Positions 6,784 to 54,605 of a stretch of 55,213 nucleotides of DNA are shown one piece after another (the stretch's first letter is position 1; each line of letters starts with the position of its first letter). The notes below the pieces were generated by a model, which worked only from the letters and a program-made list of their open reading frames with translations, was not told the origin of the DNA and did not search any database. Both the position numbers and the translations under genes were made by a program. Source of the DNA: a virus (taxonomy: Duplodnaviria > Caudoviricetes); the IMG/VR virus record IMGVR_UViG_3300042291_000512, positions 1 to 55,213 of that record; one strand, given 5' to 3'.

Positions 6784-8820
6784 ATGGGAATAACTGTAAC
6801 AAATAAGAATTTTAAAAATAAAGGAAAAGAAGTAAAATATCTTGATAAGGATTTTATTGGATTTAGAAGTAATTTAGTAGAATTTGCAAAAAACTATTTT
6901 CCTAAAACATATTCTGATTTCAATGAATCATCTCCGGGTATGATGTTTATAGAAATGGCATCGTATATAGGTGATTCATTATCGTATTACATCGATGATA
7001 CTTTAAAAGAATCATTGATGGTATATGCAGAAGACATAAAAAGTGTATTGGCATTATCTCAATATTTGGGATATAGACCAAAAGTAACTTCCCCAGCAAT
7101 AACAACCTTATCAGTTTATCAATTAGTACCATCGATAGGTATTGGCTTAAATAACATACCAGATTCAAAATATTTTTTAAGAATAAAAGAAGGATTACAA
7201 TCCATTTCAACAAAAGATGGTATATCATTTAGAACAACGGACGCTATTGATTTTTCGGAAGCAGCTAATAGAGAGATTAGTGTATATCAGAGAGAAGCGA
7301 TAACTGGTGAACCAAGCTTTTATTTAATTAAAAAATATGTTCAAGTCATATCTGGTGAATTAAAAGAAGCAACTTTTACATTTGGTTCATATTCTCCTTT
7401 TGAAAAAATAACATTAAATGATACTGATGTTATACAAATATTAGATGTTAGAGATTCAAATAATAATAAATGGTATGAAGTTCCTTATTTAGCTCAAGAA
7501 ATGGTTTTTGTAGATGTACCAAATACGGAAGTAAATGACCAAGACTTGTATCAATTTAAAACAACTGTACCATATATTTTAAAAACAATTAAAACACCAA
7601 AAAGATTTGTTTCAAAAATAGATGAAGAAAGTAGAACTATAATACAATTTGGTGCGGGGGATTCATCGGCATCGGATGAGCAATTAATTCCAAATCTTAA
7701 GAATGTTGGATTGGGTTTACCAAATTCCATAAGTAGATTAGAAGAATCGTTTGACCCAACAAATTTCTTAAAAACAAAAACATATGGCACATCTCCATCA
7801 AATACAACTATAACTGTTAAGTATTTAGTTGGTGGTGGTGTTAAATCAAATGTGTCAACTGGACAATTAACTAGAATTGATAAGATAGAATTCGAAGAAG
7901 ATACACAGGCATTAAGTGATGGTGATAGAGCAATATATAGTGCAACTAAAAATTCGGTTGCAATTGATAATGAAGTTACTGCAGGTGGTGGTAGAGGTGG
8001 CGAGACCGTTGAAGAAATTAGACAAAATGCATTAGCAAATTTTGGTTCTCAAAATAGAGCAGTAACTGCCAAAGATTATCAAGTAAGAGTATTATCTATG
8101 CCAGCAAAATTTGGAGCGGTTGCAAAGGCGTATGCTGTAGCAGATGGTACGATAGATAATAATTCACCAGCATCTATTTTAGCATCTCCTAATAATTTAC
8201 AAGAGTTTACCGATTTGGTAATGGGATTTGTTAATATGCCAGATAGTCAGGAACCTTCTGAACAATCGGTTAAAGAAGATATTACAAGATATTTGCTTGG
8301 AAAAACTTCAAATGAGAACGAAAAAAATAATCCATTTGCAATTAATTTATATTTGTTAGGATATGATTTATTTGGAAAATTAATTCCACTTACACGTGGT
8401 ATAAAAGAAAATGTTAAGACTTATTTAAATGAATATAGATTATTAACCGATGGTATAAACATTAATGATGGATTTATTATAAACATAGGTATTGAATTTG
8501 AAATATCAGTTTATCAGAATTATAATAAGAGTGAGGTATTGGCAAAATGTATTTCAGAATTAAAAGATTATTTTAATATTGATAATTGGCAATTCAATCA
8601 AACAATAAATTTAAGTGAAGTTGAATTATTAATAGCAAATATAGAAGGAGTTTCATCTGTTCCAAGTTTATTAATAGTGAATAAATGTGGAGGTAAGTAC
8701 GCACCAAATTCATATAATATAGAAGCGGCAACTAAAGCTAAGATTGTATATCCATCTTTAGACCCATCTATTTTTGAAATTAAATATCCGGATTCGGACA
8801 TAAAAGGCAGAGCAAAATAA
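6784..8820 (+). CDS. g6: baseplate wedge subunit (T4 gp6 / baseplate J-like)
   Basis: DFNESSPGMMFIE, IQFGAG, YLVGGG, GGRGGETVEEIR and QNRAVTAKDY; follows gp25. Confidence 0.88.
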   Translation: MGITVTNKNFKNKGKEVKYLDKDFIGFRSNLVEFAKNYFPKTYSDFNESSPGMMFIEMASYIGDSLSYYIDDTLKESLMVYAEDIKSVLALSQYLGYRPKVTSPAITTLSVYQLVPSIGIGLNNIPDSKYFLRIKEGLQSISTKDGISFRTTDAIDFSEAANREISVYQREAITGEPSFYLIKKYVQVISGELKEATFTFGSYSPFEKITLNDTDVIQILDVRDSNNNKWYEVPYLAQEMVFVDVPNTEVNDQDLYQFKTTVPYILKTIKTPKRFVSKIDEESRTIIQFGAGDSSASDEQLIPNLKNVGLGLPNSISRLEESFDPTNFLKTKTYGTSPSNTTITVKYLVGGGVKSNVSTGQLTRIDKIEFEEDTQALSDGDRAIYSATKNSVAIDNEVTAGGGRGGETVEEIRQNALANFGSQNRAVTAKDYQVRVLSMPAKFGAVAKAYAVADGTIDNNSPASILASPNNLQEFTDLVMGFVNMPDSQEPSEQSVKEDITRYLLGKTSNENEKNNPFAINLYLLGYDLFGKLIPLTRGIKENVKTYLNEYRLLTDGININDGFIINIGIEFEISVYQNYNKSEVLAKCISELKDYFNIDNWQFNQTINLSEVELLIANIEGVSSVPSLLIVNKCGGKYAPNSYNIEAATKAKIVYPSLDPSIFEIKYPDSDIKGRAK

Positions 8821-9890
8821 TGGCATACTATTTTTTAACAGCATCAAAAGATGCAACTCTTTATCTTCAACAACCCAATCAAAATACTGGGCTTGATGAA
8901 ATCTTAGAAATAAGTAAAGTGTATTATGGAAACATTAAAGATGTATCACATATACTACTTAAATTTGATGTTGGATTTATATCGGCATCAATTTCTAATA
9001 ATAGTATTTCAATGAACTCCGCTGAGTTAATTTTAAAAGAAACTCAAAGTGACGAAATTCCTTTAGAATATACGATATATGCGAATCCACTATCTGGTAG
9101 TTGGGAAATGGGAACTGGTACTAGATTTGATAATATATCAACTCAAGGTGTTACTTGGAATTATAGAGAAGGTGATTCTTCATTGGAATGGTTGCAAAAT
9201 AACTTTGCAACAAATACAACAGCTAGTGTTAATAACGGAGATGGTGGAACTTGGTACACGGATTATGGAACATCACAAACATTTAATTATCAGACAGCCG
9301 ATATTAATATGGATGTAAAATCTATGTTAAGAGTTTGGATGAGTGGTTCTAAACCAAATGATGGGATGATTTTAAAATATGCAACTGAAAAAGAAAGTGA
9401 CACTGCTGATTATGGGCAGTTGAAATTCTTTAGTAAAGAAACACATACGATATATCAACCAAAAATACGAATAGGATGGGATGATTCGGTATTTGCTACC
9501 GGTTCATTGAGTGCTCTAACTGCAAGTGATATTAAAGTTGGTATAACTAATTTGAAGAAAGAATACAAAGCAGGAACTATTGCTAAAATACAAATTTTTG
9601 GTAGAGAATTATATCCTCTAAAAACATTTACCGATACATTTGCATATACTAATATAAAGTATTTACCAACTACAACTTATTATCAAATAAGAGATTATGC
9701 ATCAAATGATATTATAATTCCATTTAGTGATTATTCTAAAATTAGTTGCGATACTAACGGAAATTATATAAAAGTTAATTTTTCAAATTGGGAAGCAGAT
9801 AGAGTTTATAAAATAGAATTTAAGATAGATAATAACGGTGGTATTGAATATTTTGATGATAATATAACATTTAGTATAGTAAAAGATTAA
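8820..9890 (+). CDS. virion structural protein (beta-rich, DNRLRE-like N-terminus)
   Basis: ASKDATLY...NTGLDEILEI...LLKFD; lies within the baseplate operon. Confidence 0.6.
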   Translation: MAYYFLTASKDATLYLQQPNQNTGLDEILEISKVYYGNIKDVSHILLKFDVGFISASISNNSISMNSAELILKETQSDEIPLEYTIYANPLSGSWEMGTGTRFDNISTQGVTWNYREGDSSLEWLQNNFATNTTASVNNGDGGTWYTDYGTSQTFNYQTADINMDVKSMLRVWMSGSKPNDGMILKYATEKESDTADYGQLKFFSKETHTIYQPKIRIGWDDSVFATGSLSALTASDIKVGITNLKKEYKAGTIAKIQIFGRELYPLKTFTDTFAYTNIKYLPTTTYYQIRDYASNDIIIPFSDYSKISCDTNGNYIKVNFSNWEADRVYKIEFKIDNNGGIEYFDDNITFSIVKD

Positions 9891-9892
9891 TA

Positions 9893-10969
9893 ATGGCTAA
9901 ACAACTTATAAAAACTGGTTTACGAAATGAGGGTATGATATCCGAACTTTTGTTAAGTGGTTCATTAGCAATAAAAACTAAGAATGAATTTGGTATTCAT
10001 GTGTTTAGTGGTTCAGTTGCAAATGATGGTATTGTTTCTGGAAAATTAACAAAACCAAAATATAATGAAGTTGAAGTTATAAAATCAATTGATACTAATA
10101 TAGTTGAATTAATTCCAGTAGAACCACCGGCATTACCACCAACAATATTATTAACGGCATATACTGAAGCAAATGAGTTAATAGGCGATTTAACAACACA
10201 GGTTGAGAGATTGAATAGTGTTACGCTTGATTTGGCATCTAAAGTTAAAGAATTGGAAATTGTAACACAAAGTCTTTTGGTTCAAATAGATTCTAAGGAT
10301 TTATTATTAGCAGTTTCTCAAAATCAAACTCAACAATCAAATTTAAAAGTAGAAAGTAGTATTGGTAGTTTACAAAACGCAATTCAAAAAGCAACTGCGG
10401 AGTCTATTCAACGAGTTTCTTTGAGTGGAAGAAATACATCTTTATTACAAGAAAACTCGATATTAAGTGAACAGTTAACATCGGCACAATCTCAAATAGT
10501 AAATCTTAACCAAACAATTAATCAATTGAATACTCAATTGAATAGTACTCAAACGCAATTGGTTAATAACTCAACTCAATTGGCGCAAGCTAATAATCAA
10601 CTTACAAATGCAACTACTAAAAAGAAGAAAATAATTTGTAACGAATTATACAATCAAGGTTTCTTACCTCAACACATTTGGAACGCCGATGAAATTTATG
10701 GTGAGATGATGTATGAGAAAGACCCTCGTTTGGTATTAGGATATATGATGTGGGCTAGAAATGTAGTTAAGTATATGAAAGCTAAGCCACAAAATACTAA
10801 GTGGATTTATAAGATGGTAAAACCTTGGACTGAGCATATGGCGTATAAAGTAGGTACATTGCCAAAAGATAATTGGATAGGTAAAATTATTCATAGTGTA
10901 GGAAAACAATATTGTTACTATGTATATGATAAGCAAATGAGTAAAAGAAATAAGTTGTCATGGCAATAA
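9893..10969 (+). CDS. coiled-coil protein with C-terminal 'KIICNELY' helical domain
   Basis: Long Q/N/L heptad region followed by KKKKIICNELYNQG...GYMMWARNVV...PWTEHMAY. Confidence 0.65.
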   Translation: MAKQLIKTGLRNEGMISELLLSGSLAIKTKNEFGIHVFSGSVANDGIVSGKLTKPKYNEVEVIKSIDTNIVELIPVEPPALPPTILLTAYTEANELIGDLTTQVERLNSVTLDLASKVKELEIVTQSLLVQIDSKDLLLAVSQNQTQQSNLKVESSIGSLQNAIQKATAESIQRVSLSGRNTSLLQENSILSEQLTSAQSQIVNLNQTINQLNTQLNSTQTQLVNNSTQLAQANNQLTNATTKKKKIICNELYNQGFLPQHIWNADEIYGEMMYEKDPRLVLGYMMWARNVVKYMKAKPQNTKWIYKMVKPWTEHMAYKVGTLPKDNWIGKIIHSVGKQYCYYVYDKQMSKRNKLSWQ

Positions 10970-12210: not shown

Positions 12211-12230
12211 TATAAAATACTTATAAAGTA

Positions 12231-15200
12231 ATGAGAGCAGTAGAAGAAAACGCATTTGATAATGGATTTGGGGTAAACGAATCACAACAATTATACAATC
12301 TTGATAATGAATTGGGTATTGGTATAGGTGGGGGTTCAGGTGCTGGCATCTCCTATGGTGGCGGCGGAGGAGGAGGCTTTATACCTATCATAGATACTCC
12401 AAATACGGCTCAAAGTGATAGTAAAAATATATTTTATATAGAGGCAAATGCCGCGGCAAGTATTTATATAAATGGTAGACCTACATACCAAACAACAAAT
12501 TATGGGTTACCTATTATGGTATCGCAATTGTTGGACGAAGGTAGTAAAAAAATTACGGTACAAAAGGAAGGATACGCGTGTAACGAAGAATATATAATAG
12601 ATGTTGTACAAAATCCAAATTACTATATACCATATGTTAATTTAAATATAAATCCATATGATAGTTTGGTTGGATACGATACAAGAGGATTACCCAATCA
12701 AACGTATGAAGATAACAGTTTATATAGAATTCCTGAAAATTATCAAGCGGTTTACTCGTCTGTACCGGCATACACATTTAGAATAAGAAAATTTATAAAT
12801 GAGGTACTTCAAACTGATTATAGTTATGAAATTGATAAGCAAGATAAAAAAATAAATTTTACATTAACTCAAAATATCATTGCTGATAGAAATCCAACTG
12901 ACCCTTTAGTTGAAAAGATAAAATTAAACATGGCTGTTGAGGGCCCAAATTCATCCGTATTAGTGGTGAAGGATGGTACTGGTATAACTAATGAAAAATT
13001 TAATTTAAATGCAGGAGTAACAAATTTTGAAGATGTACCAACATCGGATTTAGTTTATTCGATACAAACATCTGATATAAATTTATACAGGATTACTAAA
13101 ATAGTAGTAAGTGGTGAGGGGTTGGTAACAAAAACGTTAGAAGCTACTAGTGGATTGGAAAGTATATCTACTAAAATAAAAGCCGAAAGGGATTTAAATA
13201 TTAGTATTACTACTGAAAATTTCACAATAGTACAAGCAACAATACCATCCGTAGCATTTCTTAATTTAGACAGATTAGCATCAAAAGAATTTACTGAGTA
13301 TAACATAAATTCAAACGCAGATGTTCCAATTGGATTAAATTTATTTGGAGGTACTAATAGAGTATCGGTGTATGTAAAGGATAAGAAATATGCATTTGAT
13401 GTAAGTGGTGATAGTTCTATAATTTTAATACCATCTAAAACGTTTGATGTAATTGGTAAATATTCTATAAAAATAGTACCAAGTAATAATAGTGGAGATG
13501 GTGAGTTTATAGAAACGGCATTAGTTGCAATGGATGATATGTGGGTTGGTGTTCCGGATATTAGAAATATACAATACCCATCGGTTCTAAGAGGTCCTGA
13601 TTACATTGGTACGGATGTAAATTTTAATATATACTTTGATTCGGTTGATACTGATTATGTTAGAATGTATGCCGGAAGTACAAATTCAAATTTTACACAA
13701 TTACCTAGTAATGGCACACATACATTTAATTTTAAGCAATTATTAGTAAATTCAGGTACCAACGTTTCAGAGGACCAGGATAAAATTAGTTTACAATTAA
13801 TATTAATACCATACAATACAAGTGGAAGACAAGTCGTAGTTGGTAAAACTGAAATAATTACAATTCTTTTTGATAAAGGAGATTTAACAATTCCAAGAGA
13901 TGTTGCAATTGGTAGAATTGCTGAAGGATTTATTGCACAATTTGACAAATCTATTTTTGCAGATGAAACTTCTAAATACTTAACTCACTTATTACATATT
14001 GGTGATGGTGATAATAAAGTAATTACAACTTGGATTGGTGATGATGAATCGCTTATATTAAAATTATATGAACCGTTAGATACTGCAATACAACCAAACC
14101 AACAAGTTTGGATATCAAAAGTTCAATCAGACCCAATAATTGAAACGGTAACAATAAGTGGAGTTGATACAAGTTATTGTGCCCCACTAAAAGGACCTAA
14201 CTTTTTATTAGAACCTGATAACGGTACTGCTTTTAAAATATTTGATGATTTAATTGCAAGCGGTTCTACTACTTCAAATGATATATTAAATAAAATATCC
14301 GCTCAAAATAATATTGATACTGAAAAATTAAATATTCAATATGCAAGTGGGTCTTCATATACATTTGACCAATTTGTGCATTTTGGTTCAGCGGCTGAAA
14401 GATTAAAAAACTTTTATTATAAAGTAAGTGTTTTACAAGAATATCAAGCAAAGTATTTAGATTTAACACAAACATCCTACCCAATTGGTTATTTATTAAC
14501 CGAAGATTCGGGTGGAGATGGTACTCCTGAAATACTTGGTAATGAAATATTAATAGGTGAACAACTGGACCCAATTTTACAATTACAATTTGAGACACCT
14601 CAAGTAATCCCAGCACCATATGCTTTAATAGAAGCTAATTTAGTAGCTCAAAAAATAAGTAATTTGATAAAAACGTTTGATGGTTATGAAATATTTTTAT
14701 TTAAATCTGAAAACTTATTAGCATATCCAAAAGAAAATTATTTTAATCCATTAACATCTTACACATACAGAGTTCTAAGACCAAAAAATCATCCGATATC
14801 AATAAGTTGGTATGAAACCGCATTAAACGATTCGGAAGAATTTGATAAATATAATTCATATGCAATGCGTAATAATCTTCCAGAATATATAACGGAAGAT
14901 TATGATAATGCTGATTTTATTTTATTTTTAGATATGGTAGGCCAACATTTTGATATTTTGTGGGTCTATATAAATGGGATAAAAAAAGCTAAAAAAGTAG
15001 AACATAAAGAAGAATTAGGAGTACCGGATTCGTTAGTTAGTTCTTTACTAAACGCAATGGGTTGGGAAGAAAAAAGAGCATTTAATTCTCAATTACTTTG
15101 GGAATATATGTTTGGTACTAATCAAAATGGAGCTCCAAAATACGGCCGAAGTTTGGAAGATGCTAATTATGAAGTTTGGCGAAGAATTTTAAATAACTTA

Positions 15201-17453
15201 CCATATCTATTAAAACATAAGGGTACTTCTAGAGCATTGAAAGCTGTAATGGCTTGTTATGGCGTACCACAATCTATGTTGACGATAATGGAATTTGGCG
15301 GACCGCAAGATCCAGTTAAAAATGGCACTACAAAATTTACGTTTGATGATAGAACCGCGGCTATTGTATTAGATGAAAATTCAAGTATACAAGTACCTTG
15401 GCATATTGTAGGCTCAACAATGGATTTCCCAAATTGTATCGAATTTAGAATAAGGCCCTCAGCTAGTATCTCTAATCCAGCGACATTAATATCTGGAAGT
15501 GAATTTACTTTAGATTTAGTTCAAACAACCGGTTCTTATTATAAATTAGAATTAAATTTTGGTGGTAATGATTCTAATAGTACATACTTTGAAACAACAA
15601 CTGTATATGTAACTCCTGAATTAAGTGGTGAGTATGCATATGGTCCTGATTTAAAAACTGGAAGTTTAGATTTTCCACTTTCAAATGAACATTATTCCAA
15701 CGTAGCGATTAATAGGCACAACAATCCAGATTCATCTTCTTGGTATGAGATTTGGTTGGGAACATCTGATGGGCAAAGAATAATTACTTCGGTTAGTATG
15801 TCTATGTTATATAACGATAGTCAATGGACCGGTTCAACTCCATACTTAGTAGTTGGTGGAAATGGGTATCAGGGTGAATTAGATGAATTTCGTTTGTGGA
15901 GTGTTCCATTACAAAGAAGTAAATTTGAAAATCATACACTATTCCCAGACGCAATCAATGGTAATGATTACGATTCATCTACAAAAGATTTAATGTTCCG
16001 TTTAGATTTTGAATATCCAAAAGATAGAACTAAAACGGAAAATATTGGAATTAAAAACGTAGCTATAAGTGATACATATGCAGAACCATTTGCATCGGCA
16101 AGTAATATGTATTCTGCATCGGCATACCCATATCAATATATACCATATGATAGAACTGTAACCGCTACCGTGCCATCTATGGGATTAAACTATTCAAACA
16201 AAATACGTTTTGAAGACCAGGAATTAATTGGAGACCTTTCATATAAAACTAGAGCAACAAAAAAGGCGTTTGATAGAGCTCCAATAGATTCAAATCGTTT
16301 AGGATTATTCTTCTCTCCAATAAAGGAGTTAAATATGGATATCCTAAAAGCATTTGGTGATTTTAATATTGATAACTATATTGGTGACCCTTCCGATGAA
16401 TATACCAATTCATATAAACAATTAGATACTTTAAGACATTATTATTTTGAAAGACTTGGTAATAGAGATATCTATGAATATATTAGATTAATACGCTATA
16501 TAGATAAATCATTATTCGAGGTACTTTCGGATTTAGCACCTGCTAGAACAAATATATCTAAAGGATTATTAATAGAACCGCATTATTTAGAAAGAAGTAA
16601 AACACAATGGAAAAAAGCGGAAGCATTACGAAATGATTTTGATACTTCAATAGATACGAATGAAAATTACATATTAGAAGGCGAATCAATTCCGAAAGAT
16701 GCACATATAAACGCAGAAGAAGTAGCAATGCTAACTGGTGACATTAGTAATGAAGAAACTACAATTTTCGCAAATGATGTAATAGTAATTGAGGGAACTA
16801 ATCCAAATTACGATACAACTATTAATACAGCAGATTCAATTATATTCGAATCATCTGCTCCTTTTTATGATACTTTAATAGAATGTCCTACCGGAGCTAA
16901 TTTGGTAGGAGAAGCCGATTCATTTACATTTACTGAAATTGGAAATGATAAAGATTCTATTGCAAATGCGGGATATGGATTATACGCTATAAGAGGTAAT
17001 GGTTTGGTTAGAGATTATGACCCATTATTTGGAAATAATCAAAATACTGGAAGCAGAAAGAGTATATTTTTGGTAAAACAACAATATATCCAAAAAATAA
17101 ATACACAAACCGAAGGATACCCAACCACAGCGGATAAGCAAGTTAAATATGAAAAAATAGCTGTTACTAAATATAAATATAAAGTAGCAAAACTTCCTTT
17201 TAGTGGTAGTATTGAACTTGGTAACGATACCGTAGAGGTAACCGCTTTAAATGGATATTTGCCATCACATTATAAATTTACAAATAATTTGGGTGAGGGA
17301 ATGCTTCGTTCATTTTGGAAAGGCTCGGTTCAAGATTCATCAACTACACCTGATGGGTTAGACCCGGTTGAAACATTTACAACCAACCCTAATATTCTTA
17401 GAGTTACTAAGACTGGACGAGGTAGTGGTGAACCAATTCTTATCGTTGATTAA
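12231..17453 (+). CDS. large baseplate wedge protein (gp7-like) with LamG/ConA-like domain
   Basis: 1740 aa. FLDMVGQHFD and LLKHKGTSRALK wedge motifs; IEFRIRP...YQGELDEFRLW LamG-like motif; PEGA-like N-terminus. Confidence 0.65.
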   Translation: MRAVEENAFDNGFGVNESQQLYNLDNELGIGIGGGSGAGISYGGGGGGGFIPIIDTPNTAQSDSKNIFYIEANAAASIYINGRPTYQTTNYGLPIMVSQLLDEGSKKITVQKEGYACNEEYIIDVVQNPNYYIPYVNLNINPYDSLVGYDTRGLPNQTYEDNSLYRIPENYQAVYSSVPAYTFRIRKFINEVLQTDYSYEIDKQDKKINFTLTQNIIADRNPTDPLVEKIKLNMAVEGPNSSVLVVKDGTGITNEKFNLNAGVTNFEDVPTSDLVYSIQTSDINLYRITKIVVSGEGLVTKTLEATSGLESISTKIKAERDLNISITTENFTIVQATIPSVAFLNLDRLASKEFTEYNINSNADVPIGLNLFGGTNRVSVYVKDKKYAFDVSGDSSIILIPSKTFDVIGKYSIKIVPSNNSGDGEFIETALVAMDDMWVGVPDIRNIQYPSVLRGPDYIGTDVNFNIYFDSVDTDYVRMYAGSTNSNFTQLPSNGTHTFNFKQLLVNSGTNVSEDQDKISLQLILIPYNTSGRQVVVGKTEIITILFDKGDLTIPRDVAIGRIAEGFIAQFDKSIFADETSKYLTHLLHIGDGDNKVITTWIGDDESLILKLYEPLDTAIQPNQQVWISKVQSDPIIETVTISGVDTSYCAPLKGPNFLLEPDNGTAFKIFDDLIASGSTTSNDILNKISAQNNIDTEKLNIQYASGSSYTFDQFVHFGSAAERLKNFYYKVSVLQEYQAKYLDLTQTSYPIGYLLTEDSGGDGTPEILGNEILIGEQLDPILQLQFETPQVIPAPYALIEANLVAQKISNLIKTFDGYEIFLFKSENLLAYPKENYFNPLTSYTYRVLRPKNHPISISWYETALNDSEEFDKYNSYAMRNNLPEYITEDYDNADFILFLDMVGQHFDILWVYINGIKKAKKVEHKEELGVPDSLVSSLLNAMGWEEKRAFNSQLLWEYMFGTNQNGAPKYGRSLEDANYEVWRRILNNLPYLLKHKGTSRALKAVMACYGVPQSMLTIMEFGGPQDPVKNGTTKFTFDDRTAAIVLDENSSIQVPWHIVGSTMDFPNCIEFRIRPSASISNPATLISGSEFTLDLVQTTGSYYKLELNFGGNDSNSTYFETTTVYVTPELSGEYAYGPDLKTGSLDFPLSNEHYSNVAINRHNNPDSSSWYEIWLGTSDGQRIITSVSMSMLYNDSQWTGSTPYLVVGGNGYQGELDEFRLWSVPLQRSKFENHTLFPDAINGNDYDSSTKDLMFRLDFEYPKDRTKTENIGIKNVAISDTYAEPFASASNMYSASAYPYQYIPYDRTVTATVPSMGLNYSNKIRFEDQELIGDLSYKTRATKKAFDRAPIDSNRLGLFFSPIKELNMDILKAFGDFNIDNYIGDPSDEYTNSYKQLDTLRHYYFERLGNRDIYEYIRLIRYIDKSLFEVLSDLAPARTNISKGLLIEPHYLERSKTQWKKAEALRNDFDTSIDTNENYILEGESIPKDAHINAEEVAMLTGDISNEETTIFANDVIVIEGTNPNYDTTINTADSIIFESSAPFYDTLIECPTGANLVGEADSFTFTEIGNDKDSIANAGYGLYAIRGNGLVRDYDPLFGNNQNTGSRKSIFLVKQQYIQKINTQTEGYPTTADKQVKYEKIAVTKYKYKVAKLPFSGSIELGNDTVEVTALNGYLPSHYKFTNNLGEGMLRSFWKGSVQDSSTTPDGLDPVETFTTNPNILRVTKTGRGSGEPILIVD

Positions 17454-17506
17454 ATTGAAAATAAAAATTAGTTATATTTATAGAATATAGATAAAAAACA
17501 TATCAA

Positions 17507-18133: not shown

Positions 18134-18152
18134 AATAAAATAGAAATATAAA

Positions 18153-19364
18153 ATGGCACTAATAAACGACCCAAAAATAACAGACCAAATAAGAGCATTG
18201 GCGAATACCGGTACTGTTGATTCAAACCAAATAGTACAGATATTAAATTCAGTTTTACCAGCTGGGCAACAAATTGCAACTACTGGAACTACTGGAACTG
18301 GTCTTTACAAAAGATTTGGTGAATTTGATAAAGTAAACGCTAAAATAGAAGTAGTAACAACTGGACTATGGAGTAGTGACTCTGGTTCGTTGACGTCATT
18401 TTATACATCATCGCAAGTTGAAGCAACTAGTGGTAAATACTATTACAATGTATATCAAACTGACCCAATCGATACTGATATAGAAGAAGTTCAATTCGCA
18501 GTAGCATATGGGCATTTAGATGGTAGTGGTTCGGTTAGTTTGGATAATGACCCTAATGGATTATTGGCAACTAAAGCGACTTACGCACAATATAAATCAA
18601 TATTATTAGACCCAACATTATCTCAATTTCAATTTGAAAATGCAGTTGCGCAGGCAACAAATTCAAATGAGATTTATGTGATAAACGTAGCTAGAGCAAG
18701 ATATAGAGAATCTATGGATGCTGGTAACTGGTCATTAAAACTATCTGGTTCTAATGGATTATTTACATTTATTGATAATAGTGGTAAAAAATTCGGTGAT
18801 AATTATGGTTTAAGTGGTAATGTATTCAAAGTGGTTTCTGGTTCATTGAATTTAGGAAGCCAAAACGAAGCAACTGTTAAAAATACTACTGACCCAACTT
18901 CTGGTGAAGGGTATGGTTTATTCTACCCTGAAAGAGGTATTATAATTCTTAATCCAAAAGCGATAGCTAACGTAGTTGGTAATGTATTCAATGAAAATTT
19001 CCAAAACGTTGGAAGTTTATTACCAGATTATTCAATACTTGCTGATAAAGAAAACCATAAGAGATTATATCACGCAATTAGAGCAGGTAAAGATTTTGAT
19101 GCTAGAAGAACTGAAAATGTATCAACACAACACTTCTTTGTAAGAGCAACAAATAGAGAGTTTAATTATTCTAACAATCCTACTTACTTAGATGCAGATG
19201 GTTTCTTTACTGAACCAACATTTGAAACTGACCCTCAAACATTTATTACAACAATCGGTTTGCTGAATGATGCAAATGAAATAGTAGCAGTAGCTAAGAC
19301 TTCACAGCCAATTGTTAAATCATTTGATAAGGAAGTTCTAATTAAAGTGAAATTATCATTCTAA
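18153..19364 (+). CDS. baseplate structural protein (paralog 1)
   Basis: C-terminal FNYSNNPT...FITTIGLLNDANEIVAVAKTSQPI. Confidence 0.6.
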   Translation: MALINDPKITDQIRALANTGTVDSNQIVQILNSVLPAGQQIATTGTTGTGLYKRFGEFDKVNAKIEVVTTGLWSSDSGSLTSFYTSSQVEATSGKYYYNVYQTDPIDTDIEEVQFAVAYGHLDGSGSVSLDNDPNGLLATKATYAQYKSILLDPTLSQFQFENAVAQATNSNEIYVINVARARYRESMDAGNWSLKLSGSNGLFTFIDNSGKKFGDNYGLSGNVFKVVSGSLNLGSQNEATVKNTTDPTSGEGYGLFYPERGIIILNPKAIANVVGNVFNENFQNVGSLLPDYSILADKENHKRLYHAIRAGKDFDARRTENVSTQHFFVRATNREFNYSNNPTYLDADGFFTEPTFETDPQTFITTIGLLNDANEIVAVAKTSQPIVKSFDKEVLIKVKLSF

Positions 19365-19386
19365 TTAAAAATTATAGAAAATAAAT

Positions 19387-19410
19387 AAACCCCCTTCATT
19401 GGGGGTTTTT
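19387..19410 (+). terminator. rho-independent terminator
   Basis: aaaccccc-ttcatt-gggggttttt directly after the stop at 19364. Confidence 0.85.
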
Positions 19411-19435
19411 CATTTAACGAATATTTATATAAGAC

Positions 19436-20329
19436 ATGTTAAAAGAAATTCCAAAATCCGATGTAATCACTAGACCAATTAAGGTCTATAAAGAATGGAC
19501 ATTGGATGAAAATGATATATACCCAGTATTTGGTATAAATGGGGCTAATACACTCGTTGATATTGATAACGATGAGACGAGTTATGGATTTAATAAAAAA
19601 ATAATTTACGCATCCATAAAATCCCAATTCTACACAAACCCAGCAACTGCATCAGTATTAACCGAAGTTGGTAGAAGAATTTCTTATGCATCTACAAATG
19701 AAAGAATATTAGAAAATAATATAGCAGTATTTTCAGTACCACAAGCAAAGTATGGAGAGGGTATAAAACCAGGTACGGTTGTATTAGAAGATGCGCAATT
19801 AGGTAGAACGTATGTGGATGATGGATATTCAAATTTGAAATATAATAACCAAATAAAAGGTAATATATTTTACGATAGGGGATTAATAGTAGTTTCTAAA
19901 GATGTAGTTAGTGGTTCTGTTTTATCTCAATTTACTTTAAACTTTCGTTCAACCAAAACAATATATGAAAATGAAATATTTCTATCCGTATTGGAAAACG
20001 AGTTTAATACATCTCAAAACCCATCTGCGGTAACTGAGGATGGTGGTGTAATAAATACACATATAGTACAAAGACCCGGTTCAATTAGAAATGGGGATTT
20101 GGTAACCGCATCATTTTATAATGCTGGAACTAAAATAGTAAATGATGAATTTGCTTATTATGAAGATAATGTAAGCTTAGACCCTACTGGTTCGTATTTA
20201 GCTCCTTATATTACTACTATTGCGTTGTATGATGATGAACTAAATATGGTAGCGGTGGCAAAATTACCTCAACCAATTAAATCAACTCCAGATTATCCAG
20301 TGAATTTTATTGTTAGATTTGATTCATAA
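19436..20329 (+). CDS. baseplate structural protein (paralog 2)
   Basis: Shares GxxFYxRGxI and FNxSxNP...ITTI.L..D....VAVAK..QPI with 18153..19364. Confidence 0.65.
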   Translation: MLKEIPKSDVITRPIKVYKEWTLDENDIYPVFGINGANTLVDIDNDETSYGFNKKIIYASIKSQFYTNPATASVLTEVGRRISYASTNERILENNIAVFSVPQAKYGEGIKPGTVVLEDAQLGRTYVDDGYSNLKYNNQIKGNIFYDRGLIVVSKDVVSGSVLSQFTLNFRSTKTIYENEIFLSVLENEFNTSQNPSAVTEDGGVINTHIVQRPGSIRNGDLVTASFYNAGTKIVNDEFAYYEDNVSLDPTGSYLAPYITTIALYDDELNMVAVAKLPQPIKSTPDYPVNFIVRFDS

Positions 20330-34495: not shown

Positions 34496-36673
34496 ATGTT
34501 AAAAAAGAAGTTACTCTATGTTGCTCCCCATTTATCTACCGGAGGACAACCACAATACCTATATAAGCAGGTAAAAGAATTCATAAAAGATTTTGAGATT
34601 GAAGTTGTTGAAATAAACAATAGCGGTGGTGATGCGTTTGTTGTTCAAAAAAATAGAATCAAATCGTTAGTACCTATACATACATTGGGGGATGATAAAT
34701 CTACGATACTAGAGATAATTCAGAAATTTAATCCTGATATTATACATTTTCAAGAAATACCAGAATTTGATTTAGCTCCATTTGTATTAGATAAAATATT
34801 TGAAAAAAATAGGTCATATTTTATTGTAGCATCTACACATGGTTCATTAACTAACCCATCTGAAATATCTTACCATCCTGATAAATACATTTTAGTATCA
34901 GAATGGAGTAGACAGAGATTTATTGAAACTGGAGTAGAAACCGACATATGGCAATATCCTATTGAAGATTATGTATTTGATAAAGAGGCTGCACAAAAGG
35001 AATTAGGATTAGACCCAACTTGGAAGCATGTACTTAATGTTGGGTTATTTGCACCAGGTAAAAATCAAGGAGAAATATTTGCAATAGCAACTCAACTACA
35101 AAAATATAAAATTAAATTTCACTTCGTAGGAAATCAGGCCGGAAATTTTGAACATTATTGGGGCCCATTGATGGAGCATGTTCCTGAAAATTGTGTAATA
35201 TGGGGAGAACGAACCGATGTGGATACATTTTATTCTGCAGTAGATATGTTTTATTTTGCATCTAAACTAGAATTAAATCCACTTTCAATAAAAGAAGCAC
35301 TTTCATATAAACTTCCTTGTATATTTAGAAAATTGCATACATATTTGGATACATATGATAATAATCCATTGGTAACTTATATTGATGACGATTTAAAATT
35401 AATTAAAAGAATTATATTAGAAAAACTACAACCGCAATTTAATGAAATACCTGGTTGGTTTTCATACGAAGATATATATAACGATGTAGTTACTTTATTA
35501 AATAACGAAGATACATTTGTTGAAGTAGGAACTTGGTTTGGTAAGTCTACAAATTATATGGCAAGTAAGATTAAAGAATCTGGTAAAGATATAAAATTTA
35601 CAACCATAGATACATTCAAAGGAACTGATAATGAAACATTGCATAAAAATATAGTAGATAGTTTTAGTGGAGATATATTTTATGAGTTCATAGATAACAC
35701 AGTCCTATCAAATAATTACGGCTCATTCGATATTATAAAAGACACATCTCATAATGCATCTAATAACTTTTCAAACAATAGTATAAATTATATAATGTTA
35801 GATGCTGGACATAGTTACGAAGATGTAAAAAATGATATTAATGTTTGGTACAAAAAAGTAAAACCAGGTGGTGTTATTAGTGGTGATGATTATGGAGGAA
35901 CTTTCTTTCCTGGAGTTACCCAAGCAGCGGATGAATACTTTTATAAACAATTCAATAGAGGATTTAGAACTTGGTATCGTAAAAAACCTCGTATTCAAAT
36001 AAAACATATGTTGACTAGACCCAATGATATGAGAGAAAGAGTATCTATTCAATCTATTAAACAATTGGAAAAATATGGAATGTATTACGAACCGATTGTA
36101 AATCAACCATACGAGGGATTTGCACCAGCTGAAAATTGTAGAAGGCCAGAACATATAAGTAAAGATAATAAGCCGGGTGAGTTATACCCTGGTGCAGGTT
36201 TAGGATGGATGACTGGTAGACACTATGGTTGCTACTTAGCACATAGAATGGCATTGGAAACTATGGATACTGAAAAATTTGATTACACTTTAGTATTTGA
36301 AGCAGATGCATTTATCTATACGGGTTTGGAAGAATTTGTTGAAATAGTACATAAAGCATGTTTCTTATCAGAAAGAGATAATGTTCCATTTATTTCATTT
36401 GCAGATAACCCATCAAGAGAAAAAACAAAAATTGATGAGTTGTTTTCAAAGACAGCAGCGAATCAAGACCTTGCACATTGTTATTTAATTCCAAATAGAG
36501 AAAAACAATGGTGGGCCGATAGATTAAAAGATTGTGGTTGGGATGTTGGTGATTTGTGGTTTAATCATGTATTTATCAATCACCCAAGACCAAGATATAC
36601 AACAAACAAAATGTATAGTAAGCAAGCAGAGGGATTCTCTTTATTGGATTTAACAGTTAAAACTTGGAGTTAA
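34496..36673 (+). CDS. tri-domain GT4 glycosyltransferase / SAM methyltransferase / GT25-like glycosyltransferase
   Basis: GT-B motifs HLSTGG, VGLFAPGKNQ, ELNPLSIKEAL; Methyltransf_24 motifs VEVGTWFGKS, LDAGHSY, KPGGVISGDDY; GT25-like motifs GCYLAH, LVFEADA. Confidence 0.8.
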   Translation: MLKKKLLYVAPHLSTGGQPQYLYKQVKEFIKDFEIEVVEINNSGGDAFVVQKNRIKSLVPIHTLGDDKSTILEIIQKFNPDIIHFQEIPEFDLAPFVLDKIFEKNRSYFIVASTHGSLTNPSEISYHPDKYILVSEWSRQRFIETGVETDIWQYPIEDYVFDKEAAQKELGLDPTWKHVLNVGLFAPGKNQGEIFAIATQLQKYKIKFHFVGNQAGNFEHYWGPLMEHVPENCVIWGERTDVDTFYSAVDMFYFASKLELNPLSIKEALSYKLPCIFRKLHTYLDTYDNNPLVTYIDDDLKLIKRIILEKLQPQFNEIPGWFSYEDIYNDVVTLLNNEDTFVEVGTWFGKSTNYMASKIKESGKDIKFTTIDTFKGTDNETLHKNIVDSFSGDIFYEFIDNTVLSNNYGSFDIIKDTSHNASNNFSNNSINYIMLDAGHSYEDVKNDINVWYKKVKPGGVISGDDYGGTFFPGVTQAADEYFYKQFNRGFRTWYRKKPRIQIKHMLTRPNDMRERVSIQSIKQLEKYGMYYEPIVNQPYEGFAPAENCRRPEHISKDNKPGELYPGAGLGWMTGRHYGCYLAHRMALETMDTEKFDYTLVFEADAFIYTGLEEFVEIVHKACFLSERDNVPFISFADNPSREKTKIDELFSKTAANQDLAHCYLIPNREKQWWADRLKDCGWDVGDLWFNHVFINHPRPRYTTNKMYSKQAEGFSLLDLTVKTWS

Positions 36674-37821
36674 TGATATACGATAATTTAAAAAAGAACA
36701 AAAATAATATAGTTGAGGTACAAAACAAAGTGATAGTTCATTTTGTTAAAGGACCGTATGTAGAAATAAAAGGAAGTAAGGCTTCGGAATATAAAGTTGA
36801 ATTTATAGATAATAAAACCAATAAAATACATTATGCAGCAACTATAAAAAACAATTGTTGGTGTAAATCAAATATTGAATATTTTGTAGAATGGAAAATA
36901 AAAATTTATGAAAATGATAAATTATGGTATGAGTACATTTATAATGCAAAAGGTAAGCGTGTTTATATAGCAATGGATTCAAAGGCATTAGGGGATTCTT
37001 TGGCATGGGTAGCGTATGTTGAAGAATTTAGAAAAAAACACGAATGTGAAGTAACAACTTCAACATTTATGAACGATATGTTTATACAACAATATCCCAA
37101 TGTAACATTTGTATCACCAGGAACTCCTGTTGAAAATCTTTACGCGATGTATTGTGTTGGATTATTTTACAATGATGATAGTTCTATAAATTTAATGAAA
37201 AATCCAATAGACCCTAAAACACAAACAATGCAAAAAATGTGTTCCGATATATTGGGATTGGATTTCATAGAAGTTAGAACTAAAATAAAAAAACGAAATA
37301 TAAAAATAGACCCAAATCTTAAACAAGTTTGTATTGGTATATTTGGGACCGCTCAATCTAAATTTTGGAATAACCCAACAGGATGGCAAGATGTTGTTAA
37401 TTGGTTAAAGGAACGTGGGTATGTTGTAAAATTACTTTCGAGAGAGGGTGATGATTATATGGGAAATAAATTACCAAACGGAATTGTACAACATCCCAAT
37501 GGACCATTAGAATTGGTAATGGATGAAATGTTAAAATCAAAAGCATTTATTGGTATTGGTAGTGGATTGAGTTGGTTGAGTTGGAGTTTAAATGTTCCAA
37601 CTGTATTGATTAGTGGATTCTCATACGATTGGGCCGAGATGAAAGATTGTTATAGAGTAGCAGCACCAAAAGGTAAATGTGAGGGATGTTTTAATAGACT
37701 TAGATTGGATCCTGGTGATTGGAATTGGTGTCCGGACCATAAGGGAACTGATAGACAATTTGAGTGTACAAACTCAATAACATCAGAAATGGTAATAAAA
37801 GAATTGGAAAAATTCTTATAA
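36673..37821 (+). CDS. Aah/TibC-like protein O-glycosyltransferase (autotransporter heptosyltransferase family)
   Basis: SKALGDSLAW, KFWNNPTGW, FIGIGSGLSWLSW, VLISGFS and the four-Cys motif CEGC...WNWCPDHKGTDRQFEC. ATG at 36673 overlaps the previous stop. Confidence 0.88.
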   Translation: MIYDNLKKNKNNIVEVQNKVIVHFVKGPYVEIKGSKASEYKVEFIDNKTNKIHYAATIKNNCWCKSNIEYFVEWKIKIYENDKLWYEYIYNAKGKRVYIAMDSKALGDSLAWVAYVEEFRKKHECEVTTSTFMNDMFIQQYPNVTFVSPGTPVENLYAMYCVGLFYNDDSSINLMKNPIDPKTQTMQKMCSDILGLDFIEVRTKIKKRNIKIDPNLKQVCIGIFGTAQSKFWNNPTGWQDVVNWLKERGYVVKLLSREGDDYMGNKLPNGIVQHPNGPLELVMDEMLKSKAFIGIGSGLSWLSWSLNVPTVLISGFSYDWAEMKDCYRVAAPKGKCEGCFNRLRLDPGDWNWCPDHKGTDRQFECTNSITSEMVIKELEKFL

Positions 37822-52017: not shown

Positions 52018-53652
52018 ATGGCAAATTTTGATTTAAGCAAACTTATGGAAGGCAAGAACCCACAAGCAGTAATGTTGGCTGAAACACGTCAATTGAAAAG
52101 CAAATGGGAGAAAACAGGTCTTCTAGAAGGTATGAAAGAAAGAGACCAACACTCTATGGCAGTTCTATTAGAGAACCAAGCTAAGCAATTGTTGGATGAG
52201 GCAACTCAAACAGGTACATCATCAGGATCAGAAGAATGGTCTGGTGTTGCTTTACCATTAGTAAGAAGAATCTTCGGAGAAATCGCATCTAAGGAATTCG
52301 TAAGTGTACAACCTATGAACTTACCTTCAGGTCTTATCTTCTTCTTAGACTTCAAATATGGTTCTGCACAAGGTGGAGCAGGACAGTTTGGTGGTAAATC
52401 ACTTTTCGGTGGTACTAACGTAACTGGTTCAGCATCTAACTTTGGTAGAACTAATGCAGCTGAAGGTGGTTTATATGGTGAAGGCCGTTATGGTTATTCA
52501 GTAAATGATGCATCTATTGCAGCTTCAACAACTGCACAAGCTTCAGCTTCTTGGGTAGATTTAGGATTCGATTCTAACTATTCTCAATCAGTAGCTAACG
52601 TTGTAACAACTGGACGTTCAATCGTTAAGTTGACTATTCCTAAAGCTAACATTTCAGCAACTGCTGATACTGAAGCTGTACGTTCATTCCAAGTGGCTGG
52701 TGTACACTCTACTTTAGGTCAATTCAACTATGTATCTGGTACTAACGTTGTATTATTCGTATCTGCATCTTTAACTCAAAGAGCTGCATTAGCAGACGCA
52801 GGAGCAGCAACTGTAACTTATTCTGAAGTTCCTGTAGCTTATGACAGAGGTGATTTCGAAGATTCAACTGCAAATAGTGCTGGTAACACCACTACTGCTT
52901 TAGATATTCCTGAAATCGATCTTGAATTGAAATCAGAGGCTATCGTTGCTAAAACTCGTAAGTTGAAAGCAGTATGGACTCCTGAATTAGCGCAAGATTT
53001 GAACGCGTATCACTCAATTGATGCAGAAGCTGAATTAACTTCTATGTTATCTGATTATATCTCTTTAGAGATTGATTTAGAAATCTTAGATATGTTAAAG
53101 AGCAACGCATTAACTACTGAATACTGGTCAACTAACGTTGGTGAGGAATATGTAGGTGGTACTTGGTCAAACATTGGTGGTGCTTCTAACGCATACACTA
53201 AGAATGCATGGTTTCAAACATTAGGTGTTAAATTGAACAAAGTTTCTAACAAGATTCATCAATTAACATTAAGAGGTGGTGCTAACTTTATCGTTGCATC
53301 TCCAGATGTTTGTACTATTTTAGAATCAATTCCTGGTTTCGTTGTAAACGCTGATAAAGACGCTTTACAATTCGCAGCTGGTGTAACTTCAGTAGGTTCT
53401 ATGAGCAATAGATACACAGTTTACAAAAACCCTTACATGACTTCTAACGAAATCTTGATGGGTTATAGAGGTAACAACTTCTTAGAGACTGGTGCTGTTT
53501 ACGCTCCTTATGTTCCATTGATTATGACTCCATTAGTGTATGACCCTCAAAATTTCACTCCAAGACGCGGGGTGATGACGAGATACGCTAAGAAAATGGT
53601 CCGCCCTGAGTACTACGGAAAGATTTATGTTAAAGATTTAGCATCTATCTAA
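52018..53652 (+). CDS. g23: major capsid protein (T4 gp23-like)
   Basis: LLENQ, VSVQPMNLPSG, AKTRKLKAVWTPELAQDLNAYH, YAPYVPL and PRRGVMTRY. Confidence 0.97.
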   Translation: MANFDLSKLMEGKNPQAVMLAETRQLKSKWEKTGLLEGMKERDQHSMAVLLENQAKQLLDEATQTGTSSGSEEWSGVALPLVRRIFGEIASKEFVSVQPMNLPSGLIFFLDFKYGSAQGGAGQFGGKSLFGGTNVTGSASNFGRTNAAEGGLYGEGRYGYSVNDASIAASTTAQASASWVDLGFDSNYSQSVANVVTTGRSIVKLTIPKANISATADTEAVRSFQVAGVHSTLGQFNYVSGTNVVLFVSASLTQRAALADAGAATVTYSEVPVAYDRGDFEDSTANSAGNTTTALDIPEIDLELKSEAIVAKTRKLKAVWTPELAQDLNAYHSIDAEAELTSMLSDYISLEIDLEILDMLKSNALTTEYWSTNVGEEYVGGTWSNIGGASNAYTKNAWFQTLGVKLNKVSNKIHQLTLRGGANFIVASPDVCTILESIPGFVVNADKDALQFAAGVTSVGSMSNRYTVYKNPYMTSNEILMGYRGNNFLETGAVYAPYVPLIMTPLVYDPQNFTPRRGVMTRYAKKMVRPEYYGKIYVKDLASI

Positions 53653-53680: not shown

Positions 53681-53706
53681 GGGAAGAAGAAATTCTTCCC
53701 TTTTTT
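53681..53706 (+). terminator. rho-independent terminator after the capsid gene
   Basis: GGGAAGAA-gaaa-TTCTTCCC-TTTTTT. Confidence 0.9.
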
Positions 53707-53776
53707 ATGCTTATAGGTTTCTTAAACATTTTGATATTTATAGATGTTATAGTGTACACTAGATAATTAAATAAAA

Positions 53777-54115
53777 ATGAGCAAGCAGACAACACATCAA
53801 GTACTTCAAACTAAAAACGTATCTCAATTTACAAGTTATATGACAAGTGTAGGAACTAGAACAATATCACCTACATCTGCATCACTAAAAACGGAAACGT
53901 ATGCTAGTGGTGGAATTTCGTATGTAGCAAATGTAAACTCATTAAGTACTCAAATGATTAATGCCGGTTCATCTTCATTAGATGTATCGGAAATTGTGGG
54001 ATTATACGATATAAGATTAAACCCTGATTTGTATAGAAAATATCAATTGAATTACGCATTATCAACTGGTTCTACTTATAACGAAGCAGTAATGTGGTCT
54101 GTTAATAATTCATAA
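53777..54115 (+). CDS. Ser/Thr-rich hypothetical protein (stand-alone unit)
   Basis: 112 aa with its own ATATTTATA motif and terminator. Confidence 0.65.
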   Translation: MSKQTTHQVLQTKNVSQFTSYMTSVGTRTISPTSASLKTETYASGGISYVANVNSLSTQMINAGSSSLDVSEIVGLYDIRLNPDLYRKYQLNYALSTGSTYNEAVMWSVNNS

Positions 54116-54137
54116 TAACTTTCACAAAATATATACT

Positions 54138-54168
54138 AAAAGGAGATACTAATACTATCTCCTTTTTT
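54138..54168 (+). terminator. rho-independent terminator
   Basis: AAAAGGAGATA-ctaatac-TATCTCCTTTTTT. Confidence 0.85.
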
Positions 54169-54224
54169 ATTTTTACCCCTTTCCAACATTTTAATATTTA
54201 TAAGAGTATTAAACCGAATTACTT

Positions 54225-54605
54225 ATGGCAGCAGGAAAATACTCTTTTATAATAGAGCAAGGAGCAACAACAAATTTTCAAATCAATTGGAACGATGAAT
54301 CGGGTTCAGCAGTTGATTTGAGTGGTTATCAGGCCCGAATGCAAATCAGACCGGGTGTTGAATCATCTGATGTCTTTCTTTCACTATCATCATCCCTAAA
54401 TTCCGATAATACGGGAATCAATTTAAGTGGTTCTAATTTCATAACTCCATTGGCAAGTGGTTCAATTGGAGTATATATTTCTGCAGCATCTTCATCCGCA
54501 TTAAATTTTGGTGAAGCATTTTACGATTTAGAATTGGTAAAAGGTAATGAAGTTACGAGATTATTAGAAGGTAAAGTTAAGTTATCTAAAAACGTAACTC
54601 GATAG
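54225..54605 (+). CDS. Ig-like virion fibre-anchor protein
   Basis: IEQGAT...DLSGYQARMQIR...YDLEL...TRLLEGKV. Confidence 0.7.
   Translation: MAAGKYSFIIEQGATTNFQINWNDESGSAVDLSGYQARMQIRPGVESSDVFLSLSSSLNSDNTGINLSGSNFITPLASGSIGVYISAASSSALNFGEAFYDLELVKGNEVTRLLEGKVKLSKNVTR

Follow-up and report, generated by a model that had tools for sequence, protein, structure and literature searches.

A clade-restricted [Ser/Thr]-[Gly/Ala]-Ser motif in outer virion proteins of aquatic T4-like phages as a candidate modification site

The IMG/VR record IMGVR_UViG_3300042291_000512 is a fragment of a distant T4-like myophage genome, and its whole stretch of 55,213 bases (hereafter the window) was analyzed for the tripeptide [Ser/Thr]-[Gly/Ala]-Ser ([ST][GA]S), which recurs in the baseplate, tail fiber and capsid proteins that it encodes. 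The motif is about 4-fold over-represented in the outward-facing tail and fiber proteins of the window and its relatives, and this excess is real, sharply defined, restricted to one clade and kept by selection in outer virion proteins that are not homologous to one another. It is found at the same density in genomes that lack the TibC/Aah-like protein O-heptosyltransferase encoded in the window. We tentatively favor a model in which the motif would be recognized, most likely for O-glycosylation, by another factor common to the clade, with a pair of GT4-type glycosyltransferase (GT) paralogues encoded outside the window as the best candidate.

The tripeptide in outer virion proteins

We compared motif counts in each protein, named here by the first position of its gene, with 1000 composition-preserving shuffles. 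Nine proteins were pooled (8820, 9893, 12231, 18153, 19436, the 25551 fiber, the 52018 capsid protein, 53777 and 54225; 6655 residues), and in these the wider motif [ST][GAS]S, which a preliminary description of this DNA had proposed as a candidate glycosylation sequon, occurred 80 times against 27.0 expected (z 10.3). The signal resides in the core motif [ST][GA]S, with 65 sites against 16.8 expected (z 12.1), while [ST]SS adds little (15 vs 10.4) and the Thr-ending variant [ST][GA]T is flat (17 vs 15.6). When residues were shuffled only within 20-residue blocks the expectation for the wider motif stayed at 28.8 (z 10.5), indicating that patchy composition is not the cause of the excess, and a first-order Markov null predicted 30.8 core sites against the 65 observed. 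A composition artefact is thus ruled out by global, local and Markov nulls alike, shuffling being the check that the preliminary description had itself named. When tripeptides with only a few counts were set aside, SGS (22 vs 4.4), TGS (17 vs 4.2) and SAS (15 vs 4.0) headed an unbiased ranking of all tripeptides. The 65 core sites are encoded by varied codons, with many different 9-mers and both Ser codon families, which rules out a motif at the DNA level.

The enrichment is confined to outer virion proteins, as had been claimed: the remaining 31 proteins of the window (10,847 residues) hold 5 core sites against 10.3 expected, and the Mre11-Rad50 fusion, terminase, portal, GT fusion and 1017-residue protein were correctly described as having none, where 0.4-1.1 sites would be expected in each. 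The richest protein is the 2719-residue tail fiber (25551..33710; this and the other window genes given below lie on the plus strand), which has a gp53-like C-terminal domain (Pfam PF21882, E 2e-11). It carries 36 wider-motif sites, close to the earlier by-eye count of about 34, against 13.8 expected (z 6.1, a number reached in 0/1000 shuffles); 27 of them are [ST][GA]S, and they are densest at residues 580-1300 and 2100-2230. The peptides quoted from it and other proteins were located in the sequence. Directly downstream of the gp6-like wedge gene, the 356-residue peripheral baseplate protein at 8820..9890, which has no Pfam or PHROG match, has 7 sites against 1.16 expected (z 5.6). Significant excesses were also observed in the 1740-residue baseplate/fiber protein at 12231..17453 (12 [ST][GAS]S, of which 11 are [ST][GA]S, vs 4.13; p 0.001), the 403-residue baseplate-region protein at 18153..19364 (5 vs 1.28; p 0.007), the 297-residue protein at 19436..20329 (4 vs 0.67; p 0.005), the 126-residue protein at 54225..54605 (5 vs 1.25; p 0.006), which belongs to phrog_1084 of unknown function (PHROG E 3e-23), and, marginally, the gp23-type major capsid protein at 52018..53652 (PF07068, E 1e-74; 6 vs 2.25; p 0.014). 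The recurrence reported for named proteins therefore stands for 8820, 12231, 18153, 19436 and 54225; it does not reach significance individually for the 358-residue baseplate-region protein at 9893..10969 (2 vs 0.73; p 0.17) or the 112-residue Ser-rich protein 3' of the capsid gene at 53777..54115 (3 vs 1.39; p 0.16).

To define the rule at each position we used 76 enriched proteins from 10 related genomes. Only Ser (4.7x) and Thr (5.0x) are enriched at position 1, position 2 prefers Gly (5.6x) followed by Ala (3.7x), Cys (3.4x) and Ser (2.1x), and position 3 accepts Ser alone (806 vs 168 expected, 4.8x), with Thr at 0.9x (115 vs 127) and Asn, Asp and Gly at 0.7-1.0x. Such sharp position-specific preferences indicate that the excess is not a generic clustering of loop residues. 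The sites are also flanked by hydrophobic residues, which occupy position -1 in 45 of the 65 window sites and position +3 in 44 (background 0.40), and the same flanks are seen in 800 sites of the ten genomes.

Internal repeats or a shared domain were ruled out as the cause for the fiber and for the 8820 and 18153 families. The fiber has no internal repeat at E 1e-3, and the two families are not detectably homologous (hhalign probability 0.3%). The sole pair among the window's outer proteins with a domain in common is 18153 and 19436, which share a C-terminal domain of ~150 residues at 26% identity (blastp E 1.5e-6 over 165 residues), so that the motif does occur across unrelated folds, as first suggested. 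Nor is the excess a general property of fibers and baseplates. In 29 virion proteins of T4 we counted 14 sites where 25.0 would be expected, with no protein above z 1.4, and the baseplate and fiber open reading frames (ORFs) of S-PM2, P-SSM2 and phiM12 gave observed-to-expected ratios of 0.2-2.2 for the large ORFs, with none below p 0.03.

Comparison of orthologues revealed both conservation and turnover of sites. Three sites of the 8820 protein are nearly invariant among its 61 distinct orthologues: that at residues 7-9 is conserved in all 61, and those at 175-177 and 227-229 in 56 each. The other sites of this family retain Ser-x-Ser or have moved by one residue. One site of 18153 is present in 10/10 genomes and another in 8/10, and some sites are invariant in 10/10 genomes at 27-45% protein identity. 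More than half of the site clusters in the ten genomes (76/145) are found in one genome only, and clade-specific sites make up 30-67% per genome, with or without TibC. When clades that share 23% of their residues are aligned, 19% of sites in one have a counterpart at that position in the other, compared with 2-7% for similar polar tripeptides and 27% for the pattern hydrophobic-[GA]-hydrophobic.

AlphaFold2 (AF2) models of the 8820 and 18153 proteins (pLDDT confidence scores 72.7 and 70.9) contain 11 [ST][GA]S sites: 5 lie at the C-terminal end of a strand (one of these in a hairpin), loops hold another 4, and the remaining 2 fall within helices or at a helix end. Strand ends or loops therefore hold 9/11 sites, a statement about secondary structure only at pLDDT 71-73, and these mixed contexts argue against a single fold-specific role. 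No relative in the PDB was found for 18153 by sequence or fold or for 19436 by sequence, and a fold search with 8820 returned only generic beta-sandwich matches.

The densest case that we saw is a 1053-residue tail spike of Flavobacterium phage immuto (NC_055915.1 97658-100819), with 53 [ST][GA]S against 12 expected; its sites often stand in runs such as Thr-Ala-Ser-Tyr / Ser-Ala-Ser-Phe and Ser-Gly-Ser-Phe, and the immuto genome has no TibC. Among 72 distinct capsid proteins related to that of the window, sites recur at the alignment columns of window residues 174, 189 and 227 (in 35, 51 and 39 proteins), all of which lie in the variable middle of the protein and at none of which the window's own capsid has a site exactly.

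Independence from the TibC-like transferase

The preliminary description took the window's Aah/TibC-like transferase as the obvious writer, such that the motif would be the sequon at which a phage enzyme heptosylates outer virion proteins. Its identification of the enzyme was correct. The 385-residue product of 36664..37821, whose gene overlaps the end of the GT fusion gene, scores 283 bits against TIGR04414 (cut-off 200) over model positions 10-373 of 374 and matches TibC (PDB 4RAP) at E 6.3e-53 over residues 43-377, as expected of a full-length member of the family. In a HMMER alignment, all four iron-finger cysteines of TibC (Cys339, 342, 358 and 370, as numbered in PMC4358343) align with a Cys of the query. 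Its location also fits such a role, in that the gene lies 3 kb downstream of the fiber, the most site-rich protein, and the copy in Microcystis phage Mel-JY01 lies 3' of a 508-residue structural protein with 14 sites against 3.2 expected. We found no autotransporter domain in its neighbors (tail fiber, chaperone, GT fusion and a protein resembling nicotinamide mononucleotide (NMN) adenylyltransferase), and no ADP-heptose synthesis gene was seen in the window. Synthesis of ADP-heptose by the phage through the 38295 nucleotidyltransferase was considered and rejected, as this protein is NMN-adenylyltransferase-like and not a heptose adenylyltransferase.

Co-occurrence with the enzyme gene was a comparison that the preliminary description had itself proposed, naming equal enrichment in relatives without the transferase as a refutation. 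Orthologues of 8820, 12231, 18153 and 19436 are present in all ten genomes, which include uncultured relatives designated G001, G003 and so on. A search of the complete immuto genome gave no TibC even at E 10, and the gene is also missing from G014 (100% complete), G015 (90% complete) and the syntenic 91-kb contig G003; none of these four holds a GT9-family gene. Enrichment in the four families is nevertheless 5.9x in G014, 3.7x in G015, 4.2x in immuto and 4.0x in G003, compared with 4.5-6.2x in the six TibC-bearing genomes, and the Thr-ending variant is flat in these families in all ten. The 12231 orthologues alone have 8-20 sites against 2.2-3.4 expected in every genome. The proportion of clade-specific sites and the mix of SGS, TGS, SAS and TAS are likewise similar with and without TibC. 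This equal density indicates that the TibC-like enzyme did not shape the motif; the expected co-occurrence with Aah-like genes is not seen, and the gene-neighborhood argument, TibC beside a site-rich fiber, pointed to the wrong writer. Enriched ORFs are somewhat more numerous in the TibC-bearing genomes, which is in favor of the enzyme; in the huge phages LR756501 and LR756504, both with a TibC gene, no excess was seen up to 20 kb from it, although their virion genes may lie elsewhere.

Substrate preference leads to the same conclusion. In PMC4358343, TibC is reported to modify Ser, not Thr, in short inter-strand loops, with mapped TibA sites N-S-G-G and T-S-A-A, and the first two positions of these resemble [ST]-[GA]-S. 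When we examined an AIDA-I homologue encoded beside an Aah-type gene, this natural substrate was enriched 5.0x in S[GA][GA] (44 vs 8.8) and depleted in T[GA][GA] (2 vs 7.9, 0.3x), while [ST][GA]S reached only 1.6x (12 vs 7.4). The phage proteins have no S[GA][GA] excess: across the 76 enriched proteins [ST][GA]G stands at 0.7x and [ST][GA]A at 1.1x, and S[GA][GA] at p<1e-3 was seen in only 2 ORFs, both in G013. The Ser-only S[GA][GA] acceptor pattern is therefore unmatched in the phages, where Thr equals Ser at position 1 and Ser is obligatory at position 3.

What, then, might the TibC-like enzyme modify? Together with the GT fusion, it may form a swappable accessory cassette that perhaps uses the same strand-loop-strand sites but more probably acts on collagen-like fibers of (Gly-Thr/Ser-Ser)n repeats, an alternative target that is partly supported by our data. 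A proline-free repeat protein of this kind is encoded at 54607..55212, where it is cut by the window end; it has 84 residues in Gly-x-y runs and 6 motif sites against 8.2 expected, hence no enrichment beyond composition. Within the genomes compared, proline-free Gly-x-y runs are limited to the window, G001 and G013, which all bear TibC and together form one clade; none was found in G014, G015 or immuto, nor in Mel-JY01, which bears TibC. Relatives of the 54607 protein in G001 (128888-140872 and 142947-154730) and G013 (126219-139991 and 142082-153682) are giants of 3866-4590 residues with up to ~1000 residues of proline-free, Thr/Ser-rich Gly-x-y repeats. In G003, the stretch between the fiber and the 38295 homologue (L168:871-18527) encodes two fusions of a GT7 (galactosyltransferase-like) domain with a concanavalin-like lectin, as well as a radical-SAM protein and a methyltransferase, in place of the window's GT fusion and TibC. 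This substitution makes the fiber-adjacent locus look like a swappable glycosylation island.

A recognition site or a structural element

Given that the TibC-like enzyme did not shape the motif, we infer that a different factor may read it. Hydrophobic-[Ser/Thr]-[Gly/Ala]-Ser-hydrophobic is a short motif maintained by selection in outward-facing baseplate and fiber proteins, and weakly written into the capsid surface as well, across the whole clade of aquatic T4-like phages to which the window, Mel-JY01, immuto and many uncultured relatives belong. In the model that we tentatively favor, it would serve as the recognition site of a trans-acting factor common to this clade and distinct from the TibC-like enzyme, most plausibly a cytoplasmic Ser/Thr O-glycosyltransferase, and the GT4 pair would be the leading candidate for the writer.

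This pair consists of adjacent GT4-type paralogues, one of ~460 residues that matches Glycos_transf_1 and one of ~450 residues that is strongly diverged, with 31.6% mutual identity over 136 residues. Both are present, at 42-54% identity, in G013 (L295:12536-15593), G014 (L272:244-2996), G015, immuto (NC_055915.1 49172-51927) and Mel-JY01 (PP395634.1 83441-86302); in G015 and in Mel-JY01 the first gene is broken into two ORFs. The second member was also found in G019 and G020, and among 50,697 phage records it occurs only in those of immuto and Mel-JY01 (5 records). A screen for genes common to the six largest genomes, with G001 as reference, returned 28 structural or morphogenetic genes and no conserved enzyme. 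The GT pair escaped this screen owing to truncation of the G001 contig: no pair was found in G001, whose contig ends where the collinear G013 runs ~85 kb further, so that absence there says nothing, and none of 59 ORFs at 180-240 kb of G013 has a G001 homologue. G001 (L172-L180) is rated 96% complete and is collinear with G013 (L286-L298) over 0-168 kb; the further ~85 kb of G013 imply that this estimate is probably too high.

One further relative provides a contrast. LR756508, a 484-kb genome with the same baseplate module, has no TibC, a first GT at 34% identity and no second GT. Its four families hold 7 sites against 2.5 expected, and 3/5 near-universal sites are lost, which is the direction expected if the motif depends on the GT pair.

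Several points weigh against this model. LR756508 is a single lineage, and its observed-to-expected ratio of 2.8 has a Poisson range that extends into the 3.7-6.2x seen in the other genomes. The two GTs resemble GT4 enzymes only in a generic way; their best match in the PDB is B736L, a glycosyltransferase of a chlorovirus, at E 1e-7, and none was found for the second member. No gene is proven present in every motif-carrying genome, the window, G003, G021 and G022 being fragments. Large phages often carry GT genes of this type for modification of DNA or lipopolysaccharide. Full-text searches, which did not extend to supplementary files, turned up no account of the tripeptide or of virion glycosylation for this clade. 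The scarcity of sites in inner virion proteins (8 vs 40.5 expected) was dropped as a sign of a sequon and is no evidence of avoidance, because the head and baseplate genes of T4 are equally low (0.40x) and the other ORFs of the clade stand at 0.91x.

Four of the window's 6 capsid sites do fall in the variable middle of the protein (local identity 0.23-0.30 vs 0.58 overall), as the preliminary description stated. In 85 related capsid proteins, [ST][GA]S has an observed-to-expected ratio of 2.2-3.3, and [ST][GA]T is raised as well, at 1.9-2.6, with no difference between TibC-bearing and TibC-less genomes. The capsid therefore adds little and is weak as independent support.

The strongest alternative, which we consider a substantial though lesser possibility, is that the motif serves structure alone, ending a strand or forming a tight turn with two outward hydroxyls and a small inward residue between them; the beta-rich outer proteins would reuse it for folding or subunit packing, and it would carry no modification. 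The hydrophobic flanks in 45 and 44 of the 65 sites, recurring in the 800 sites of the ten genomes, the placement of 5/11 modeled sites at the end of a beta-strand (one in a hairpin), and the conservation of sites at a level near that of core hydrophobic patterns (19% vs 27%) fit this role as well as they fit a recognition site, as does the invariance of several sites in 10/10 genomes at 27-45% identity. An enrichment that is independent of any single enzyme gene, with no conserved enzyme among the 28 core genes, is likewise what a structural role would predict. Structural rules are universal, however, yet T4, S-PM2, P-SSM2, phiM12 and the beta-helical AIDA-I homologue have no excess. Moreover, Thr favors strands yet is excluded at position 3 (0.9x) while being accepted at position 1, the motif-bearing families are non-homologous with mixed modeled contexts, and at least one third of the sites were gained recently and are clade-specific.

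We regard as improbable that the site is read by a non-enzymatic factor such as a clade-specific fiber or baseplate chaperone, by a host enzyme, or by an enzyme of some other Ser modification (phosphorylation or acylation). The specificity, clade restriction and spread across families are the same as those that suggest a recognition site for a glycosyltransferase, and a tail-fiber assembly chaperone gene (PF16778) adjoins the fiber gene. Against this, no clade-conserved candidate appears among the 28 core genes, and chaperone sites are rarely this sharply defined; a shared host enzyme is unlikely because the known hosts, Microcystis for Mel-JY01 and Flavobacterium for immuto, are unrelated. 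That the window's own TibC-like enzyme reads the motif is very unlikely in light of its absence from G014, G015, immuto and G003, its Ser-only preference and the finding of no phage gene for ADP-heptose synthesis.

The proposed recognition site can be extended to a bolder model, which we consider rather doubtful, in which the motif would be a virion-wide O-glycosylation sequon, its sugar added in the cytoplasm by the two-paralogue GT4 writer and then elaborated by swappable cassettes into a genetically encoded glycan coat. The elaborating cassettes would be TibC with the GT/methyltransferase fusion in the window and the GT7-lectin fusions with the radical-SAM protein in G003. Such a coat would cover the baseplate, fibers and capsid surface, and the simple rule would make its sites predictable.

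If the tripeptide marks sites of modification, phage virion glycosylation would have its first simple and predictable sequon. Glycan coats would then be implied for abundant phages that infect Bacteroidota and cyanobacteria in fresh water and the sea, which would bear on adsorption and host range, on the stability of the particles and on grazing or recognition by immune systems. If it is structural, it would be a very sharply defined, clade-restricted strand-end motif common to non-homologous proteins, and would still aid the modeling and annotation of baseplate and fiber proteins that otherwise cannot be annotated. The cultured phages Mel-JY01 and immuto make the question directly testable.

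Known systems and gene context

The closest known parallel to the window's enzyme is the TibC-TibA and Aah-AIDA-I systems of E. coli (TIGR04414; PDB 4RAP/4RB4; PMC4358343); the window's protein belongs to this family over its full length and has all four iron-finger cysteines. Enzymes of the family transfer heptose from ADP-heptose to Ser and form a dodecamer. They act in the cytoplasm on many Ser residues in the short inter-strand loops of beta-rich surface proteins, and in both cases the enzyme gene stands beside the gene of a giant surface protein. In the window this neighbor is a tail fiber rather than an autotransporter, and the natural substrate has a Ser-only S-[GA]-[GA] pattern whereas the phage motif is [ST]-[GA]-S and equally dense without the enzyme.

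The two-paralogue layout of the GT pair has a bacterial parallel as well. In Gram-positive bacteria, GtfA-GtfB, a catalytic GT4 enzyme and a diverged GT-B paralogue, O-glycosylate Ser in Ser-Ala-Ser-type sequence of serine-rich repeat adhesins in the cytoplasm. We found no specific sequence similarity of the phage pair to this system, B736L at E 1e-7 being its best match in the PDB, and where the adhesins have long low-complexity repeats, the phage sites are single tripeptides scattered in folded domains. A formal resemblance can also be drawn to the N-glycosylation sequon Asn-x-Ser/Thr, which spans three residues, requires a hydroxyl residue at a distance of two from another polar residue and is enriched in exposed proteins. 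The phage rule is likewise one of three residues (hydroxyl, small, hydroxyl), with sites both conserved and turned over, and it differs in that Asn-x-Ser/Thr entails N-linked chemistry and another compartment and enzymes. As a precedent for glycan-coated virions, mycobacteriophages reportedly encode glycosyltransferases that modify capsid and tail proteins in the cytoplasm. The account of that work in PMC12619734 (citing Freeman et al. 2023) places the glycans at the C-termini of capsid and tail-tube subunits, unlike the tripeptide dispersed through baseplate and fiber proteins here, and the enzymes and hosts are unrelated.

The window has ~32% G+C, and all of its long ORFs lie on the plus strand. 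In order, it encodes the baseplate hub and wedge, with gp25 at 6345 and the gp6-like gene at 6784, followed by seven unannotated baseplate/fiber genes from 8820 to 20329 and then by a segE-like endonuclease, a primase and the Mre11-Rad50 fusion. Further 3' lie the 2719-residue fiber and its chaperone, the glycosyltransferase/methyltransferase fusion, the TibC homologue and the gene for the 1017-residue protein. Terminase and portal come next, then head genes, and last the gene of the gp23-type capsid protein with those of three small proteins rich in Ser. Cultured relatives with the same gene order are Mel-JY01 and immuto, and hundreds of uncultured relatives are present in IMG/VR.

The fusion upstream of TibC (34496..36673; 725 residues) combines a GT1-family (GT4-type) glycosyltransferase with a methyltransferase and a weak GT25-like region (Pfam PF00534, PF13578 and PF01755) and has 0 motif sites. 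Two weak Pfam matches below the cut-offs lie within the fiber, at residues 1898-1927 and 2352-2470: the carbohydrate-binding module CBM_5_12 at E 1.7e-4 and an intein splicing domain at E 2.4e-3. The N-terminal 160 residues of the 1017-residue protein (38295-41348) resemble NMN adenylyltransferase (NadR/NatV-like). Only ~100 residues of its N-terminus match in immuto, and no match was found in the fragments G021 and G022. In most relatives, ~400 N-terminal residues are kept beside the terminase gene, and the remainder beyond this conserved part ranges from 639 to 1566 residues.

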